From Escherichia coli (GTDB taxonomy: Bacteria; Pseudomonadota; Gammaproteobacteria; Enterobacterales; Enterobacteriaceae), in the NCBI RefSeq assembly GCF_003334785.1, contig NZ_QOWV01000002.1: DNA of 64,000 bases; one strand, 5' to 3'. The notes beneath the pieces are model-generated. The model was not told the DNA's origin. It worked only from the letters and a program-made list of their open reading frames with translations, and did not search any database. Below are positions 6,184 to 64,000 of this stretch, piece by piece. Each line of letters begins with the position of its first letter. The first letter of the stretch is position 1. The position numbers and the translations under genes are program-made.

Positions 6184-6283
6184 GCCGGATGCGGCGTGAA
6201 CGCCTTATCCGGCCTACAAAATTGTGTAAATTCAATAAATTGATCGATCCACGTAGGCCTGATAAGCGTAGCGCATCAGGCAG
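6184..6283. repeat. BIME: two REP elements in inverted orientation between ccmH and narP
   Basis: gccggatgcggcgtgaacgccttatccggcctaca (6184-6218) and gtaggcctgataagcgtagcgcatcaggcag (6253-6283), typical REP palindromes. Confidence 0.8.
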
Positions 6284-9995: not shown

Positions 9996-10072
9996 TGGTC
10001 GGCACGAGAGGATTTGAACCTCCGACCCCCGACACCCCATGACGGTGCGCTACCAGGCTGCGCTACGTGCCG
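9996..10072 (-). tRNA. proL: tRNA-Pro (anticodon GGG)
   Basis: Reverse complement reads CGGCACGTAGCGCAGCCTGGTAGCGCACCGTCATGGGGTGTCGGGGGTCGGAGGTTCAAATCCTCTCGTGCCGACCA: cloverleaf with U33-GGG anticodon, T-loop GGTTCAAATCC and encoded CCA. Confidence 0.93.
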
Positions 10073-43395: not shown

Positions 43396-43488
43396 TGCCT
43401 GATGCGCAAGCTTATCAGGCCTACATTTACTTGCTGAAATTGCCTGATTTGTAGGCCGGATAAGACGCGTTAAGCGTCGCATCCGGCA
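43396..43488. repeat. BIME: two inverted REP elements downstream of nupX and yeiI
   Basis: gcctgatgcgcaagcttatcaggcctac and gtaggccggataagacgcgttaagcgtcgcatccggca. Confidence 0.8.
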
Positions 43489-56933: not shown

Positions 56934-56942
56934 GACTGATTG

Positions 56943-56968
56943 GGCGCAGTCTATTACTGCGCCCTTAT
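56943..56968 (+). terminator. Intercistronic hairpin between mglB and mglA (candidate partial terminator or stabilising element)
   Basis: ggcgcagt-ctatt-actgcgcc followed by cttattg. Confidence 0.4.
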
Positions 56969-56993
56969 TGTATGGCCAACAAGGTAAAATTAT

Positions 56994-58514
56994 ATGGTCA
57001 GCTCAACGACTCCGTCCTCCGGGGAATACTTGTTGGAAATGAGCGGTATCAACAAGTCCTTTCCTGGTGTTAAGGCACTTGATAACGTTAATTTAAAAGT
57101 CCGGCCACATTCTATCCATGCATTAATGGGGGAAAACGGTGCAGGAAAATCGACATTATTAAAATGCCTGTTTGGTATTTATCAAAAAGACTCCGGCACC
57201 ATTTTATTCCAGGGTAAAGAGATCGATTTCCATTCTGCAAAAGAAGCCCTGGAAAATGGTATTTCGATGGTACACCAGGAGTTAAACCTGGTATTACAAC
57301 GTTCGGTGATGGATAACATGTGGCTGGGGCGATATCCCACCAAAGGCATGTTTGTCGATCAGGACAAAATGTACCGCGAAACCAAAGCGATTTTTGACGA
57401 ACTGGATATTGATATCGATCCGCGTGCGCGCGTCGGCACATTATCCGTTTCGCAAATGCAGATGATCGAAATCGCCAAAGCGTTTTCCTATAACGCGAAA
57501 ATTGTGATTATGGATGAACCGACTTCTTCGTTAACCGAAAAAGAGGTCAATCATCTGTTCACTATTATTCGTAAATTAAAAGAGCGCGGCTGCGGTATTG
57601 TTTATATCTCGCATAAAATGGAAGAAATCTTCCAGTTATGTGATGAAGTTACCGTATTGCGCGACGGTCAGTGGATCGCCACCGAACCGCTGGCAGGACT
57701 GACGATGGACAAGATCATCGCCATGATGGTTGGGCGTTCTCTTAACCAGCGTTTCCCTGACAAAGAAAACAAACCGGGCGAAGTCATCCTCGAGGTACGT
57801 AACCTGACGTCACTGCGCCAGCCGTCGATTCGCGATGTCTCGTTTGATCTGCATAAAGGGGAGATCCTCGGTATTGCCGGTCTGGTGGGGGCGAAACGTA
57901 CCGATATTGTTGAGACGTTATTTGGTATTCGCGAGAAATCGGCTGGCACCATAACGTTGCACGGCAAACAGATCAATAACCATAATGCCAACGAAGCCAT
58001 AAACCATGGATTTGCACTGGTAACTGAGGAGCGCCGCTCAACGGGAATTTATGCCTATCTGGATATTGGTTTTAACTCGTTAATTTCCAATATTCGCAAC
58101 TACAAAAATAAAGTTGGTTTACTGGATAACTCGCGGATGAAAAGCGATACCCAGTGGGTGATTGATTCGATGCGGGTAAAAACGCCGGGTCATCGGACGC
58201 AAATTGGTTCGCTCTCCGGTGGTAATCAGCAAAAGGTGATTATTGGTCGCTGGCTACTAACGCAACCAGAAATATTAATGCTCGATGAACCGACGCGCGG
58301 TATTGATGTCGGGGCGAAGTTTGAAATTTATCAGTTAATTGCCGAACTGGCGAAGAAAGGCAAGGGGATTATTATTATCTCCTCTGAAATGCCTGAGTTG
58401 TTAGGGATAACAGACCGTATTCTGGTCATGAGCAATGGTCTCGTTTCCGGAATTGTCGATACAAAAACAACAACGCAAAACGAAATTCTGCGTCTTGCGT
58501 CTTTGCACCTTTAA
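56994..58514 (+). CDS. mglA: Galactose/methyl-galactoside ABC transporter ATP-binding protein MglA
   Basis: 506 aa, tandem ABC domains (GENGAGKST ... LSGGNQQKV). Confidence 0.95.
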
Positions 58515-58529
58515 GATTAGGGGCTTCCC

Positions 58530-59540
58530 ATGAGTGCGTTAAATAAGAAAAGTTTTCTTACTTACCTGAAAGAGGGCGGTATTTACGTCGTTCTTTTAGT
58601 TTTGCTGGCGATTATTATTTTCCAGGACCCAACATTTTTAAGTCTGTTGAACTTAAGTAATATTCTCACCCAGTCATCGGTGCGTATTATTATCGCGCTC
58701 GGTGTGGCAGGGTTAATTGTCACCCAGGGGACCGATCTTTCTGCTGGTCGTCAGGTAGGGCTGGCGGCAGTGGTGGCTGCGACATTATTGCAGTCCATGG
58801 ATAACGCCAACAAAGTGTTCCCGGAAATGGCGACGATGCCGATTGCGCTGGTTATTCTGATTGTCTGTGCCATTGGTGCGGTGATCGGTTTGATCAACGG
58901 TCTGATTATCGCTTATCTCAACGTGACGCCGTTCATTACCACGCTCGGCACGATGATCATCGTCTATGGCATCAACTCGCTCTATTACGACTTTGTCGGG
59001 GCGTCGCCAATTTCTGGTTTTGACAGTGGCTTCTCTACCTTTGCTCAGGGCTTTGTCGCGCTGGGGAGTTTCCGTCTCTCTTACATCACCTTCTACGCGT
59101 TGATTGCGGTGGCGTTCGTCTGGGTGTTGTGGAACAAAACCCGCTTCGGTAAGAACATTTTTGCCATTGGCGGTAACCCGGAAGCGGCAAAAGTATCTGG
59201 TGTCAACGTCGGCCTGAACCTGCTGATGATCTACGCGTTGTCTGGCGTGTTCTATGCCTTTGGCGGGATGTTAGAAGCCGGACGTATCGGCTCTGCCACC
59301 AACAACCTCGGCTTTATGTATGAGCTGGATGCTATCGCGGCGTGCGTGGTAGGCGGTGTATCGTTCAGCGGCGGTGTGGGGACGGTGATTGGCGTGGTGA
59401 CCGGGGTAATTATTTTTACCGTCATCAACTATGGCCTGACGTATATCGGCGTAAACCCATACTGGCAGTACATCATCAAAGGGGCGATTATTATCTTCGC
59501 CGTAGCGCTGGATTCACTGAAATACGCGCGTAAGAAATGA
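58530..59540 (+). CDS. mglC: Galactose/methyl-galactoside ABC transporter permease MglC
   Basis: 336-aa polytopic permease. Confidence 0.95.
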   Translation: MSALNKKSFLTYLKEGGIYVVLLVLLAIIIFQDPTFLSLLNLSNILTQSSVRIIIALGVAGLIVTQGTDLSAGRQVGLAAVVAATLLQSMDNANKVFPEMATMPIALVILIVCAIGAVIGLINGLIIAYLNVTPFITTLGTMIIVYGINSLYYDFVGASPISGFDSGFSTFAQGFVALGSFRLSYITFYALIAVAFVWVLWNKTRFGKNIFAIGGNPEAAKVSGVNVGLNLLMIYALSGVFYAFGGMLEAGRIGSATNNLGFMYELDAIAACVVGGVSFSGGVGTVIGVVTGVIIFTVINYGLTYIGVNPYWQYIIKGAIIIFAVALDSLKYARKK

Positions 59541-59598
59541 TGTGAATGTGGTCCGCATTCGGTCATAAACGCACATAACATCATGATCTGTGTGGTTT

Positions 59599-59777
59599 TG
59601 TAGGCCGGATAAGGCGTTCACGCCGCATCCGGCAACAGGAGCCAAATGCCGGATGCAACGCTGGCGCGTTTTATCCGGCCTACAATAAGCTCAACATACT
59701 GATTTGTATGGTTTTGTAGGCCGGATAAGGCGTTCAAGCCGCATCCGGCGACAGGAACCAAATGCCGGATGCGTCTC
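59599..59777. repeat. BIME cluster: three to four REP elements in two tandem units of about 115 bp, between mglC and preA
   Basis: gtaggccggataaggcgttcaCgccgcatccggcaac and gccggatgcaacgctggcgcgttttatccggcctaca, then a second copy gtaggccggataaggcgttcaAgccgcatccggcgac plus a partial gccggatgcgtctctgg. Confidence 0.8.
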
Positions 59778-59782
59778 TGGTT

Positions 59783-61018
59783 TTACAACGTTACCGGGTG
59801 TTCTTTCTCGCCTTTCTTAAACTTCACTTCCCCGAGCTCAATACAACCCACCGGGCAGACGTGACCACAAAGCAGACAACCCACACATTTCTCGGTATTA
59901 CAATGCGGTGTGCGGGTTTTCTCGCTCCATTCCATCGCCTGGTGACCGCCGTCGTAACAGGAAATATAACAGCGTCCACAGCCAACACATTTATCAAGAT
60001 TGATACGGGGATAGACAATATAACTGCGGTCTAAATCTTCCGCCGGGACAATATTGTTATTCGCCAGACCTACCATCTCCTGCAGCGAATCAAATCCCTG
60101 ATCGGCGAGATAATGCGACAACCCGCTTGCCATATCTTCCACTATCCGATACCCGTACTGCATGATGCCGGTGGTCACCTGTAACGTTGCTGCGCCGAGC
60201 AATAAAAACTCAGCCGCATCCTCCCAGGTTTCAATGCCGCCGATACCGCTGATTGGGAAATCGCGCAGTTCTGGATGGGTGCGCATTTGCTGAATGAAGC
60301 GCAGGGCGATCGGTTTTACCGCTTTACCGGAATATCCGGAAATACTCGATTTTCCGTTAACGATCGGCATACCGATTTTCTGATTAAGATCGATATTGGT
60401 GATGGATTTAACGGTGTTAATCGCCGCAATGCCATCTGCGCCGCCGCGCTTCGCCGCCAGCGCCACTTCGCACATATCACCGATATTCGGCGTCATCTTC
60501 GCCAGCATTGGCAGCGTGGAACCCCGTTTCACTGCCCGACAATATTTTTCTACCAGCTCCGGGCTTTGCCCGACATCGCTACCCATCGCATGAGAAGTCA
60601 TTTGCGGACAGGAGAAGTTACACTCGATCATATCCGCGCCAGCTTCTTGCACCAGGCGCGCCAGCTCCTCCCATTGCTGCTCATTTTCCCCCATGATCGA
60701 AGCGATCAATACTTTGTCCGGGTAATCTTCCTTCAGCCGACGCAGGGCGGCCAGATTCTCTTCCAACGGATGTTCAGCAATCTGCTCCATATTTTTGAAG
60801 CCGATAAAACCGGTATCTTCTTTCACCAGATGATCAAAACGCGGCGAGACTTCGTTGGCGATAAAAAAGCCGATCGTTTTAAACACCACACCGCCCCAAC
60901 CTGTGTCGTAGGCTTTGGCACACATCTCATAGCAGTTGCCTACCGGCGAAGAAGAGAGGCAGAACGGGTTGGGAAACTTCACGCCGCAAAAAGTAATCGA
61001 AAGATCTTTCGTTAACAT
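59783..61018 (-). CDS. preA: NAD-dependent dihydropyrimidine dehydrogenase subunit PreA (YeiA)
   Basis: 411 aa from the ATG at 61018 ([19 protein letters not shown]...); C-terminal 4Fe-4S ferredoxin motifs CVGCGRC and [12 protein letters not shown]. Confidence 0.92.
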
Positions 61019-62250
61019 GAGCAAGCTCCCTCTAAATAGTGATGAATCGCCTCGGCGGCTTCTTTCCCGGTTTTCACGGCATAGACCACGGTTTTGTCAC
61101 CCTCAACAATCTCGCCAGCAGCAAAGACTTGCGGGTCGCGGGTCTGGTAATTTTGTGTTTTGATGGTGTTACGCTGCGGCTCTAACTCCGCAAAGGCATC
61201 TAGTCTGGCATGCTGACCGACGGCGAGAATAATTTTATCTGCCGCCATCGTCAGTTCGCCCGATAACCGTACATGCTTAAACGTGACTTTATTGCCTTCC
61301 ACGGCTACTGGCGTGAATCCATCGATGATCGAAACGCCCAGCTCCCGGGCGCTGGTAAACTCTTTTTCGCTTGCCGGAAACTCATCTAACTCTTCACGCG
61401 CTACGCAAGTTACCGCCTGACAGCCGAGAACTTTCAGCGTGCTGGCTACGTCCATCGCGACATCACCGCCGCCGATAATTAATGCGCTTTGTGGAATGCT
61501 GATATCGCCTTGCGCCTGTCGTGCACGTTGCAAGAAGTCGACGGCAATCTCAACGTCACTATGCTCAAACAGCGGTAGCCCGGAACCGCTTGATAACCCC
61601 ACGGTGACCAGTACCGCGCGGTTTTCTGCTTTCAGCTGCTCAAGGGTGAGTGTGTTACCGACTTCGTTGTTGCACTTAATGGTCACGCCCATTTTTTCAA
61701 TACGGGCGATCTCTGCATCCAGCACTGATTGCGGTAACCGGAATTGCGGAATACCGTTACGCAACCAGCCACCGGGGTGCGCTTCTTTCTCATAAATCGT
61801 GACGTCATAACCCTGGTTTGTCAGTGTCACACTGGCCTGCAATCCGGCAGGACCTGCGCCAATAATCGCGACTTTGCCGAGCGTTTTAGTACCGGGCTGA
61901 TAAATTTCCATTCCGGTTTGTTGTTCAAAATCAGTAACAAAACGCTGTAAGCGGCCGATATCAATGGGAGCATCAACACCGGCACGGGTACAACCGCTTT
62001 GGCATAATTTCTCCGTCGGGCACACTCTGGCACAAACGGCACCGAGGGCATTATTTTCGCGAATTGTCTCGGCAGCGCCTTTAAAATTACGAAAGTAGAT
62101 TGAGCGAATAAATTTCCCCGGATCGGTCTGTGCCGGGCAAGCCTGACTACAGGGAGCGTCGTGACATAATAAACAGCGAGAGGCTTCTTTAATCGCCAGT
62201 AAAGACGTAAAAGCCGGAGTGAGTTCATCCAGATAATTTTGTTGCGGCAT
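61012..62250 (-). CDS. preT: NAD-dependent dihydropyrimidine dehydrogenase subunit PreT (YeiT)
   Basis: 412 aa; FAD/NAD-binding GAGPAG motif and an N-terminal Cys cluster; 7-nt overlap with preA. Confidence 0.92.

Positions 62251-62443: not shown

Positions 62444-64000
<1,557 letters not shown>

Follow-up and report, generated by a model that had tools for sequence, protein, structure and literature searches.

What has come to occupy the gap between the convergent genes mglC and preA of Escherichia coli, and what does it do to the RNAs that reach it from the two sides? The window, i.e., the whole stretch of 64,000 nucleotides analysed, is around this gap exactly the reverse strand of E. coli K-12 MG1655 (NC_000913.3). 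The last gene of mglBAC, mglC, ends at 59540 and preA, on the other strand, ends at 59783, so that the gap comprises 242 bp, 59541-59782, just as given in the first-pass annotation, an earlier reading of this DNA from its letters. Beyond preA lies PreT, which is named by the position of its reading frame matching that of MG1655 b2146, a search of it against NCBIfam having yielded no match above cutoff. It is textbook knowledge for E. coli that REP and BIME arrays exist, vary in copy number among strains and play a part at the 3' ends of mRNAs, and it is against that background that the content of the gap is to be seen. Taken as a whole, the following account of it appears to us probable: the gap is a BIME-2 array in which complete REPs alternate as Y, Z2 and Y, with the stump of a fourth, a Z2, behind them, in ~1.8 units that are specific to the locus; RNA from the mglBAC side has its 3' end at the second Y, for which polymerase would have read through the array, been stopped by Rho and left an RNA to be trimmed back; and the number of units would change by unequal recombination.

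That the gap is repetitive is readily seen. The stretches 59577-59664 and 59693-59780 are direct repeats of 88 nt with 78 of the 88 positions identical (89%) and 116 bp from start to start; among 200 shuffled versions of the gap no 88-nt self-match exceeded 40/88. Tandem Repeats Finder, at its thresholds, reported nothing for the gap. Y-type REP matches number five in the 64-kb window and none in shuffles of it. The first-pass annotation had two tandem units of ~115 bp filling the whole gap; the repeat is real and its period is 116 bp, but the first 36 nt are unrepeated and there are ~1.8 copies, unit 1 having 116 nt and unit 2 just 90 of the 116. It had also placed a pair of inverted REPs in each unit, which is so for unit 1, with its Y and its Z2, but not for unit 2, which has a Y and a Z2 stump only. 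The 61-nt consensus that it quoted, with three variable positions, is exact. The unrepeated leader can be aligned with the complete Z2 REP found at the same position in two other Escherichia lineages, and part of it, 59552-59576, is possibly what is left of a decayed Z2 REP, though the alignment has too many gaps to be more than suggestive. The features are collected in Table 1.

Table 1. Features of the mglC-preA gap and its surroundings, in window coordinates
Feature	Position	Strand	Basis or remark
MglA open reading frame	56994-58514	+	NCBIfam equivalog-level match
mglC coding sequence, last gene of mglBAC	58530-59540	+	NCBIfam NF007014 equivalog, 641 bits; identical to MG1655 b2148
mglC stop codon	59538-59540	+	
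Non-repeated leader (36 nt)	59541-59576	+	Single-copy within the gap
Tandem unit 1 (116 bp): tail-to-tail linker, Y REP, S linker, Z2 REP, start of next linker	59577-59692	+	Direct repeat; register confirmed against three-unit allele of strain S30
Linker before Y REP no. 1, partial copy of tail-to-tail linker	59577-59599	+	
Y REP no. 1, GTAG at 59600-59603	59600-59633	+	Exact match to Y pattern; inverted-repeat hairpin arms
Short head-to-head linker no. 1 (14 nt), AACAGGAGCCAAAT	59634-59647	+	Sequence; S-linker definition of BIME-2
Z2 REP, inverted orientation, GCCGGATGCAACGCTGGCGCGTTTTATCCGGCCTAC, CTAC at 59680-59683	59648-59683	+	Pattern match; hairpin arms; within Rfam naRNA4 match 59603-59680
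Tail-to-tail linker no. 2 (32 nt), locus-specific	59684-59715	+	
Tandem unit 2, truncated (90 bp)	59693-59782	+	Direct repeat; S30 comparison
Y REP no. 2, GTAG at 59716-59719	59716-59749	+	One mismatch to Y pattern
Short head-to-head linker no. 2 (14 nt), GACAGGAACCAAAT	59750-59763	+	Sequence
Z2 REP remnant, GCCGGATGC + GTCTCTGGTT, abutting preA stop codon	59764-59782	+	Complete Z2 REP at same position in L095
preA stop codon	59783-59785	-	
preA coding sequence, convergent with mglC	59783-61018	-	NCBIfam NF006183 equivalog, 688 bits; RefSeq b2147, 2235265-2236500
mgl-strand read-through zone, antisense to preA	59923-60255	+	PMC7815308, supp. files 1 and 2
PreT open reading frame	61012-62250	-	Position matching MG1655 b2146

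At its preA end the array is cut short. The Z2 stump there consists of the first (5') arm only, GCCGGATGC at 59764-59772, a matter of 9-13 nt, and the 10 nt 59773-59782 then lead to the preA stop. The stump takes part in an inverted repeat with the stem GCAUCCGGC.../...GCCGGAUGC, 59737-59749 pairing with 59764-59776, i.e., a hybrid of a Y arm and the Z2 remnant, and on the minus strand 6-9 nt separate the preA stop from the start of the resulting hairpin. Its equivalent of 59737-59776 is kept in all the E. coli alleles described below. Could a hairpin so placed stall terminating ribosomes and thereby lower the output of PreA? A REP near a stop codon is said, from work by Liang, Rudd and Deutscher in 2015, to affect translation via ribosome stalling, and by analogy with it the distance of the stem from the stop, the conservation of the stop-proximal segment in every E. 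coli allele, and the actual overlap of stop codon and complete Z2 REP in the divergent lineage L095, would all suit such an effect. The stem is, however, a Y arm/Z2 remnant hybrid and not a canonical REP, and we regard stalling here as decidedly unlikely.

To what class does the array belong? BIME-2 elements combine y and z2 REPs with a short S linker, in tandem units which are conserved within a locus and whose number varies among strains (Ton-Hoang et al. 2012, PMC3333891; Gilson/Bachellier nomenclature). In the gap, y- and z2-type REPs alternate in inverse orientation (Y at 59600-59633 and 59716-59749; Z2 at 59648-59683), GTAG stands 5' of the palindrome foot with CTAC on the inverted copy, the two linkers between REP and iREP are short, and the conserved tandem units are of strain-variable number (~1.8 here; 1, 2 or 3 elsewhere); like other BIME-2 it is extragenic, here between convergent genes. 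The array is a member of this long-established class, so that the BIME proposed in the first-pass annotation is borne out and can be named more closely. The inverted REP we take to be Z2 in part from a general Z2 consensus, in addition to the Rfam Y-S-Z2 model. There are differences from BIME-2 too, in that of the last Z2 just 9-13 nt are left here, joined directly to the region of the preA stop, and that the tail-to-tail linker is unique to the locus. BIME-2 are further described as being flanked or connected by s, l or r motifs; in such a place the array has the 32-nt linker 59684-59715, with its partial copy at 59577-59599, which may or may not be one of them.

The Rfam model in question, RF02564 (naRNA4), describes a Y-S-Z2 unit and gives 88.3 bits for 59603-59680(+), its gathering score being 59.5; on unit 2 it gives only 38 bits because the Z2 of that unit is truncated. 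The Y-S-Z2 unit is thus common to this array and to the REP325/naRNA4 array of the yjdM-yjdN operon (RF02564, 88 bits), likewise a 3'UTR element and described as an mRNA stabiliser and partial Rho-dependent attenuator. REP325 differs from it in having 12 hairpins between tandem genes, as against 3.3 hairpins between convergent genes here, and in a Rho dependence that required the full-length array. Given the match above the gathering score, one might suppose that processing of the unit gives a nucleoid-associated RNA of ~80 nt, akin to naRNA4, which acts with HU on chromosome structure, the nucleoid role of the REP325 naRNA4 having been proposed originally in PMC4550694. However, the Rfam model merely describes a BIME-2 unit, REP325/naRNA4 is without measurable nucleoid compaction or REP-REP contacts (bioRxiv 10.64898/2026.03.23.713779), and no processed species maps here by Term-seq beyond a single 3' end. 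Such an RNA is extremely improbable for this locus.

The other main BIME type, BIME-1 or RIP, has y and z1 REPs, is single-copy, and carries in a long L linker an IHF site, WATCAANNNNTTR (PMC3333891). Both that type and the mglC-preA array have an inverted REP pair, but the array is without z1, without the long head-to-head L linker and without an exact IHF consensus in the gap, and an identity with BIME-1/RIP was rejected. This bears on the suggestion in the first-pass annotation that the array is a binding platform for IHF and for DNA gyrase. For IHF, whose sites belong to the BIME-1 L linker, a scan of the gap gave no exact consensus, and there is one match with a single mismatch in the linker, 59704-59692(-), with 0.14 expected in shuffles; the suggestion is not supported. 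Nor does it fare better for gyrase. It is attractive to think of the array as a strong DNA-level gyrase site absorbing the positive supercoils between converging mglBAC and preTA, as it is of the BIME-2 class, lies fittingly between convergent genes, and gyrase cleavage is enriched in BIME-2, if in only a subset of them and mostly at y REPs (Sutormin et al. 2019, PMC6379681). Yet Topo-seq table DS3 has 0 gyrase cleavage sites at W3110 MuSGS 2240991-2241140 (window 59600-59749) in four conditions (ciprofloxacin, rifampicin + ciprofloxacin, microcin B17 and oxolinic acid), the locus having been identified by its coordinates with an offset of 4,457 derived from two flanking REPs, both of which fit. 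Other BIME-2 in that table have up to 35 sites (PMC6379681), so in this respect the array differs from those that gyrase cleaves. As 47% of strains, moreover, are without REPs at the locus, a dedicated gyrase site there is very improbable.

How did the 116-bp periodicity arise? Within the window the tail-to-tail linker occurs only at this locus, and a 36-nt probe of it, with a cutoff as loose as E<=10, has a single match in each of 2,825 genomes, all of them carriers of the long allele, and none in other genomes. Its being unique to the locus argues that the periodicity derives from local tandem duplication and not from a genome-wide composite unit. The REPs themselves would originally have been seeded by a REP-associated transposase system, and unit number would then change where the 116-bp repeats undergo unequal homologous recombination or where replication slips from one to the other.

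The 5,426 complete E. coli genomes surveyed show the locus to be far from invariant, invariance having been named in the first-pass annotation as what would speak against its surmise of a strain-variable copy number and a likely recombination or polymorphism hotspot. The copy number does vary among strains. The long allele, L, with two units and a gap of 242 bp, is present in ~2,820-2,824 genomes (~52%); the short one, S, with no complete REP and a gap of 70 bp, is present in 2,399 of one subtype and ~147 of a second (~47%). One unit, in a gap of 126 bp, characterises allele M, found in 55 genomes, all of the O157:H7 lineage. Three units, in a gap of 358 bp, are carried by at least one genome, strain S30, a lower bound as S30 was recognised by a single-piece match and there are up to ~6 extra junction copies over all genomes. 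The unit period is exactly 116 bp in both M and S30. The M unit is the left of unit 1 joined to the right of unit 2, and the middle unit of S30 is the left of unit 2 joined to the right of unit 1; they are therefore exact reciprocal hybrids, the pair of products to be expected when 116-bp repeats recombine unequally or slip. The M allele shares its O157 SNPs with the long allele of O157.

The dimorphism between S and L, amounting to 172 bp, is not a change of unit number. S reads TTGCCGGATGC-GC-TGCATCCGGCAA followed by linker and Z2 stump. Comparison with the divergent lineages described below shows that in it the 5' arm of a first Z2 has been joined to the 3' arm of the Y next to it, a Z2/Y palindrome having lost its interior by deletion. 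The L-allele junction matches at 100% in K-12, 98% in O157 and ~93% in UTI89, and to judge by sequence the L allele is old.

For a wider comparison a degenerate DNA pattern for the MglC C-terminus was run against one genome per species, and gave 120 loci. E. albertii is without a second Y; its gap holds the leader, unit 1 and linker no. 2. Two divergent representatives classed as 'E. coli' species have a complete Z2 directly after mglC; one of them reads Z2-l-Y-S-stump and the other, L095, reads Z2-l-Y-S-Z2-l-Y-S-Z2, with the CTAC tail of its last complete Z2 supplying the preA stop codon. That there is in L095 a complete Z2 at the same position identifies the K-12 stump as the remnant of a Z2 REP. 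In five Citrobacter genomes mglC and preA are also convergent, ~65-75 nt apart, and the gap has no REP and no repeats; what it contains is one bidirectional intrinsic terminator of canonical form, with an A-run, a GC hairpin and a T-run. The genes and the position are the same as in E. coli, and in each case GC-rich hairpin structure serves both strands, but where Citrobacter has one hairpin flanked by A and T runs E. coli has a REP array with repeats. In other genera preA is not adjacent to mglC, which is followed by an ordinary terminator. One candidate homology was considered and discarded: the hairpin of the 70-bp allele is not the Citrobacter terminator, its left junction matching the first Z2 REP of L095 and L118 and its right half being the 3' arm of a Y.

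Might the array then be a neutral or selfish repeat, seeded by a REP-associated transposase, expanded by local duplication and free of selected function, with any RNA end there incidental to the presence of a stable hairpin? S in ~47% of E. coli and the intrinsic terminator in Citrobacter together imply that most of the array is dispensable, and the absence of complete REPs from about half of E. coli counts against a strong functional claim. The one-unit allele of 55 genomes, the different array architectures among Escherichia lineages, the presence in Citrobacter of a terminator only, and a locus-specific linker such as local duplication would yield all sit well with neutrality. On the other hand, a strong hairpin stands next to the preA stop in every E. 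coli allele, so that some 3' structure is always kept, and the array does have an RNA 3' end mapped to it. Neutrality of this sort overlaps with the account of a BIME-2 array with a protected RNA end rather than competing with it, and as an explanation in its own right it is possible, if on balance doubtful.

The RNA end itself is known from Term-seq (Adams et al. 2021, PMC7815308, supp. files 1 and 2). On the mglBAC strand a 3' end is at 59753, i.e., MG1655 2236530 on the minus strand, in LB at OD 0.4 with an average read count of 51,513, and the mapping was checked by the printed 61-nt context, which is -50/+10 around 2236530. It lies 4 nt beyond 59749, the last position of the Y REP no. 2 stem, and also at the base of a long Z2/linker/Y composite hairpin that is predicted as the MFE structure. 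It is the sole Term-seq 3' end within the gap and is listed in one of three growth conditions, and neither Y REP no. 1 nor Z2 has one in the Term-seq list. Nor does the list have a 3' end in the gap on the preTA strand, presumably owing to poor expression of preTA in the Term-seq media. The plus strand from 59596 to 59753 has a predicted fold of -85.9 kcal/mol (MFE; z = -10), and the minus-strand fold is predicted to be equally strong, at -90 kcal/mol (z = -7.5).

Beyond the array, a minor mgl-strand end is at 59923 (MG1655 2236360(-)), 170 nt downstream of 59753, and a Rho termination region peaks at window position 60255 (MG1655 2236028(-)), with a Rho score of 7.46 and p 3e-13 (PMC7815308), the downstream reads there rising from 12 without bicyclomycin to 72 with it. 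From the end at 59923 and a bicyclomycin-sensitive region ~0.5 kb downstream it follows that polymerase reads through the array and that Rho stops it inside antisense preA. A terminator pattern search of the gap found no hairpin with U tract after the REP stems and no T runs; its sole match to an intrinsic-terminator consensus is a weak one inside the Z2 REP. With no U tract, and with read-through and a Rho dependence downstream, an intrinsic (Rho-independent) terminator was rejected.

Is the array nevertheless a direct bidirectional terminator of both convergent operons, one that replaced the intrinsic terminator of the Citrobacter type? It has the same position as that terminator, the 3' end is at a hairpin base, and ~40% of the REPs between convergent genes are in predicted bidirectional terminators, with REP325 being a partial Rho-dependent terminator (bioRxiv 10.64898/2026.03.23.713779). 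The REP stems here are, however, without a U tract, the Term-seq end 170 nt on and the bicyclomycin-sensitive region ~0.5 kb on mean substantial read-through, and in the REP325 study units of 2-4 hairpins were insufficient for Rho dependence (bioRxiv 10.64898/2026.03.23.713779). Direct termination for both operons is unlikely. Of the stabiliser or terminator envisaged in the first-pass annotation, what stands is the RNA 3' end 4 nt past a REP hairpin, and with it the expected coincidence of transcript end and REP hairpin on the mglBAC strand; a real terminator it is not, with read-through and with Rho acting ~0.5 kb on.

The account that we prefer, that of a BIME-2 array at which the RNA end is protected, would run as follows. 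RNA polymerase would read through the array and Rho would terminate it downstream; 3'-to-5' exonucleases (PNPase, RNase II) would trim the RNA back to the REP structure, and there be blocked by it, which would set the steady-state 3' end of mglBAC mRNA. The array being palindromic, it would act likewise for preTA mRNA on the other strand. The end at 59753 may arise by trimming, or by pausing or termination at the hairpin. The REP of malE-malF is reportedly, from Newbury in 1987, such a REP-stabilised mRNA 3' end. The trimming of Rho-terminated transcripts to a protective stem-loop or REP is an established model (Dar & Sorek 2018, PMC6061677), and the ends to which it applies resemble the present one in being precise, a few nt past a stable stem that has no U tract, and in having a Rho region downstream, with the difference that at mglC-preA the exonuclease trimming is putative. 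REPs have more recently been described as context-dependent dual elements of 3'UTRs, both partial terminator and stabiliser and bidirectional between convergent genes (Harris et al. 2026, bioRxiv 10.64898/2026.03.23.713779), and REP-terminated mRNAs as having no genome-wide gain in half-life (bioRxiv 10.64898/2026.03.23.713779).

A bolder thought is that S, with its 70 bp and one hybrid hairpin, and L, with 242 bp and a full BIME-2, constitute a functional regulatory polymorphism, the REP array having replaced in Escherichia an ancestral bidirectional intrinsic terminator, of which Citrobacter would still have the like, and so switched mglBAC and preTA to Rho-dependent termination with hairpin-protected ends. 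Both families are deeply diverged, and about half of E. coli belongs to each. If it were true, they would set different levels of mRNA stability, read-through or antisense by phylogroup, and so touch on galactose transport and pyrimidine catabolism; we consider it quite unlikely.

How much of this is new? A search of the literature that was accessible found no paper linking mglC with REPs. The array shows nothing that departs from known BIME-2 biology and is in that sense already known; the allele spectrum at the locus and the contrast with the Citrobacter terminator are small, unsurprising additions. The wider importance of the array is little beyond bookkeeping. It is a tidy worked example, with natural alleles of 0, 1, 2 and 3 units, a mapped 3' end, a Rho region downstream and an intrinsic terminator in a sister genus, and the natural allelic series could serve to gauge how far the stability of mRNAs from convergent operons depends on a BIME between them.

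A minor observation concerns one deposited genome. The allele of O157:H7 strain TR01 was considered as an insertion intermediate with a 51-bp target duplication and rejected as such, being a singleton of long-allele length with its flanks replaced base for base. The pattern fits a reference-guided or polishing artefact, the deposited genome appearing to be chimeric at mglC-preA, and the locus is thereby a caution for assemblers.

How far can the array of REP hairpins between mglC and preA be recombined or lost? In E. coli S30 (NZ_CP010231.1; locus L130, 201-558) the mglC/preA gap is 358 bp, a three-unit allele whose middle unit is a hybrid, with the left part of unit 2 and the right part of unit 1, and the one-unit allele of O157:H7 is the reciprocal of that hybrid. 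Another gap, of 243 bp, in E. coli O157:H7 TR01 (NZ_CP033605.1; locus L005, 2392-2634), has the central part of the O157 long allele and, substituted base for base on both flanks, sequence of the 70-bp allele, including a duplicate of the final 10 nt of mglC. That configuration was found only once among 5,426 genomes, and it looks like an artefact of reference-guided assembly or polishing rather than a true allele. As a separate matter of labelling, the 4.83-Mb genome NZ_CP026085.1 (locus L003) is designated 'DH5alpha', probably in error: its allele is the 70-bp one, and genuine K-12 strains have that of 242 bp.

The convergent arrangement of mglC and preA is shared with Citrobacter spp. In the five loci concerned (L012, L021, L047, L057, L069) the gap has no REP, and the site taken by the REP array in Escherichia is instead that of one bidirectional intrinsic terminator of canonical form (A-run, GGCCGGTGCAG...CTGCACCGGCC, T-run) within the first ~75 nt past the mglC stop. 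A Leclercia adecarboxylata MAG (locus L065) has an ordinary terminator after mglC followed by a tandem array of REP pairs (GCCCGGCGGCGCTGCGCTTGCACGGGCCTAC / GTAGGCCGGGTAAGGCGAAGCCGCCACCCGGC), ~45-330 nt past the stop with a period of ~100 bp, these REPs being of a different, species-specific kind.

Within the operon, the strongest mgl-strand Term-seq 3′ end (MG1655 2239314, count 147,960) is at the hairpin between mglB and mglA, which is an internal attenuator or terminator downstream of mglB. The 3′ end inside mglC may reflect an ORF-internal RNA; it is flagged 'sRNA', and Adams et al. 2021 (PMC7815308) probed it under the name 'mglC int'.

Four further REP sites are present in the window. 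None has a gyrase cleavage site in the Topo-seq table (PMC6379681), which lists the Z-type element within a 90-bp BIME-1. Besides the naRNA4 hit in the mglC/preA array, only a tRNA gene and the rplY leader exceed the Rfam gathering score anywhere in the 64-kb window.

Transcript ends, REPs and Rfam matches by window position
Feature	Position	Strand	Details
Hairpin GGGCGCAGT...ACTGCGCCC, then TTATT	~56940-56969	+	mglB-mglA intergenic
3′ end within mglC	59023 (MG1655 2237260)	+	Term-seq
Further REP elements	6184-6217, 13363-13396, 43397-43487, 63514-63547		Y-type at three sites, one Z-type
tRNA gene	9999-10072	-	Rfam, above gathering score
L25 (rplY) ribosomal-protein leader	13788-13813	-	Rfam, above gathering score
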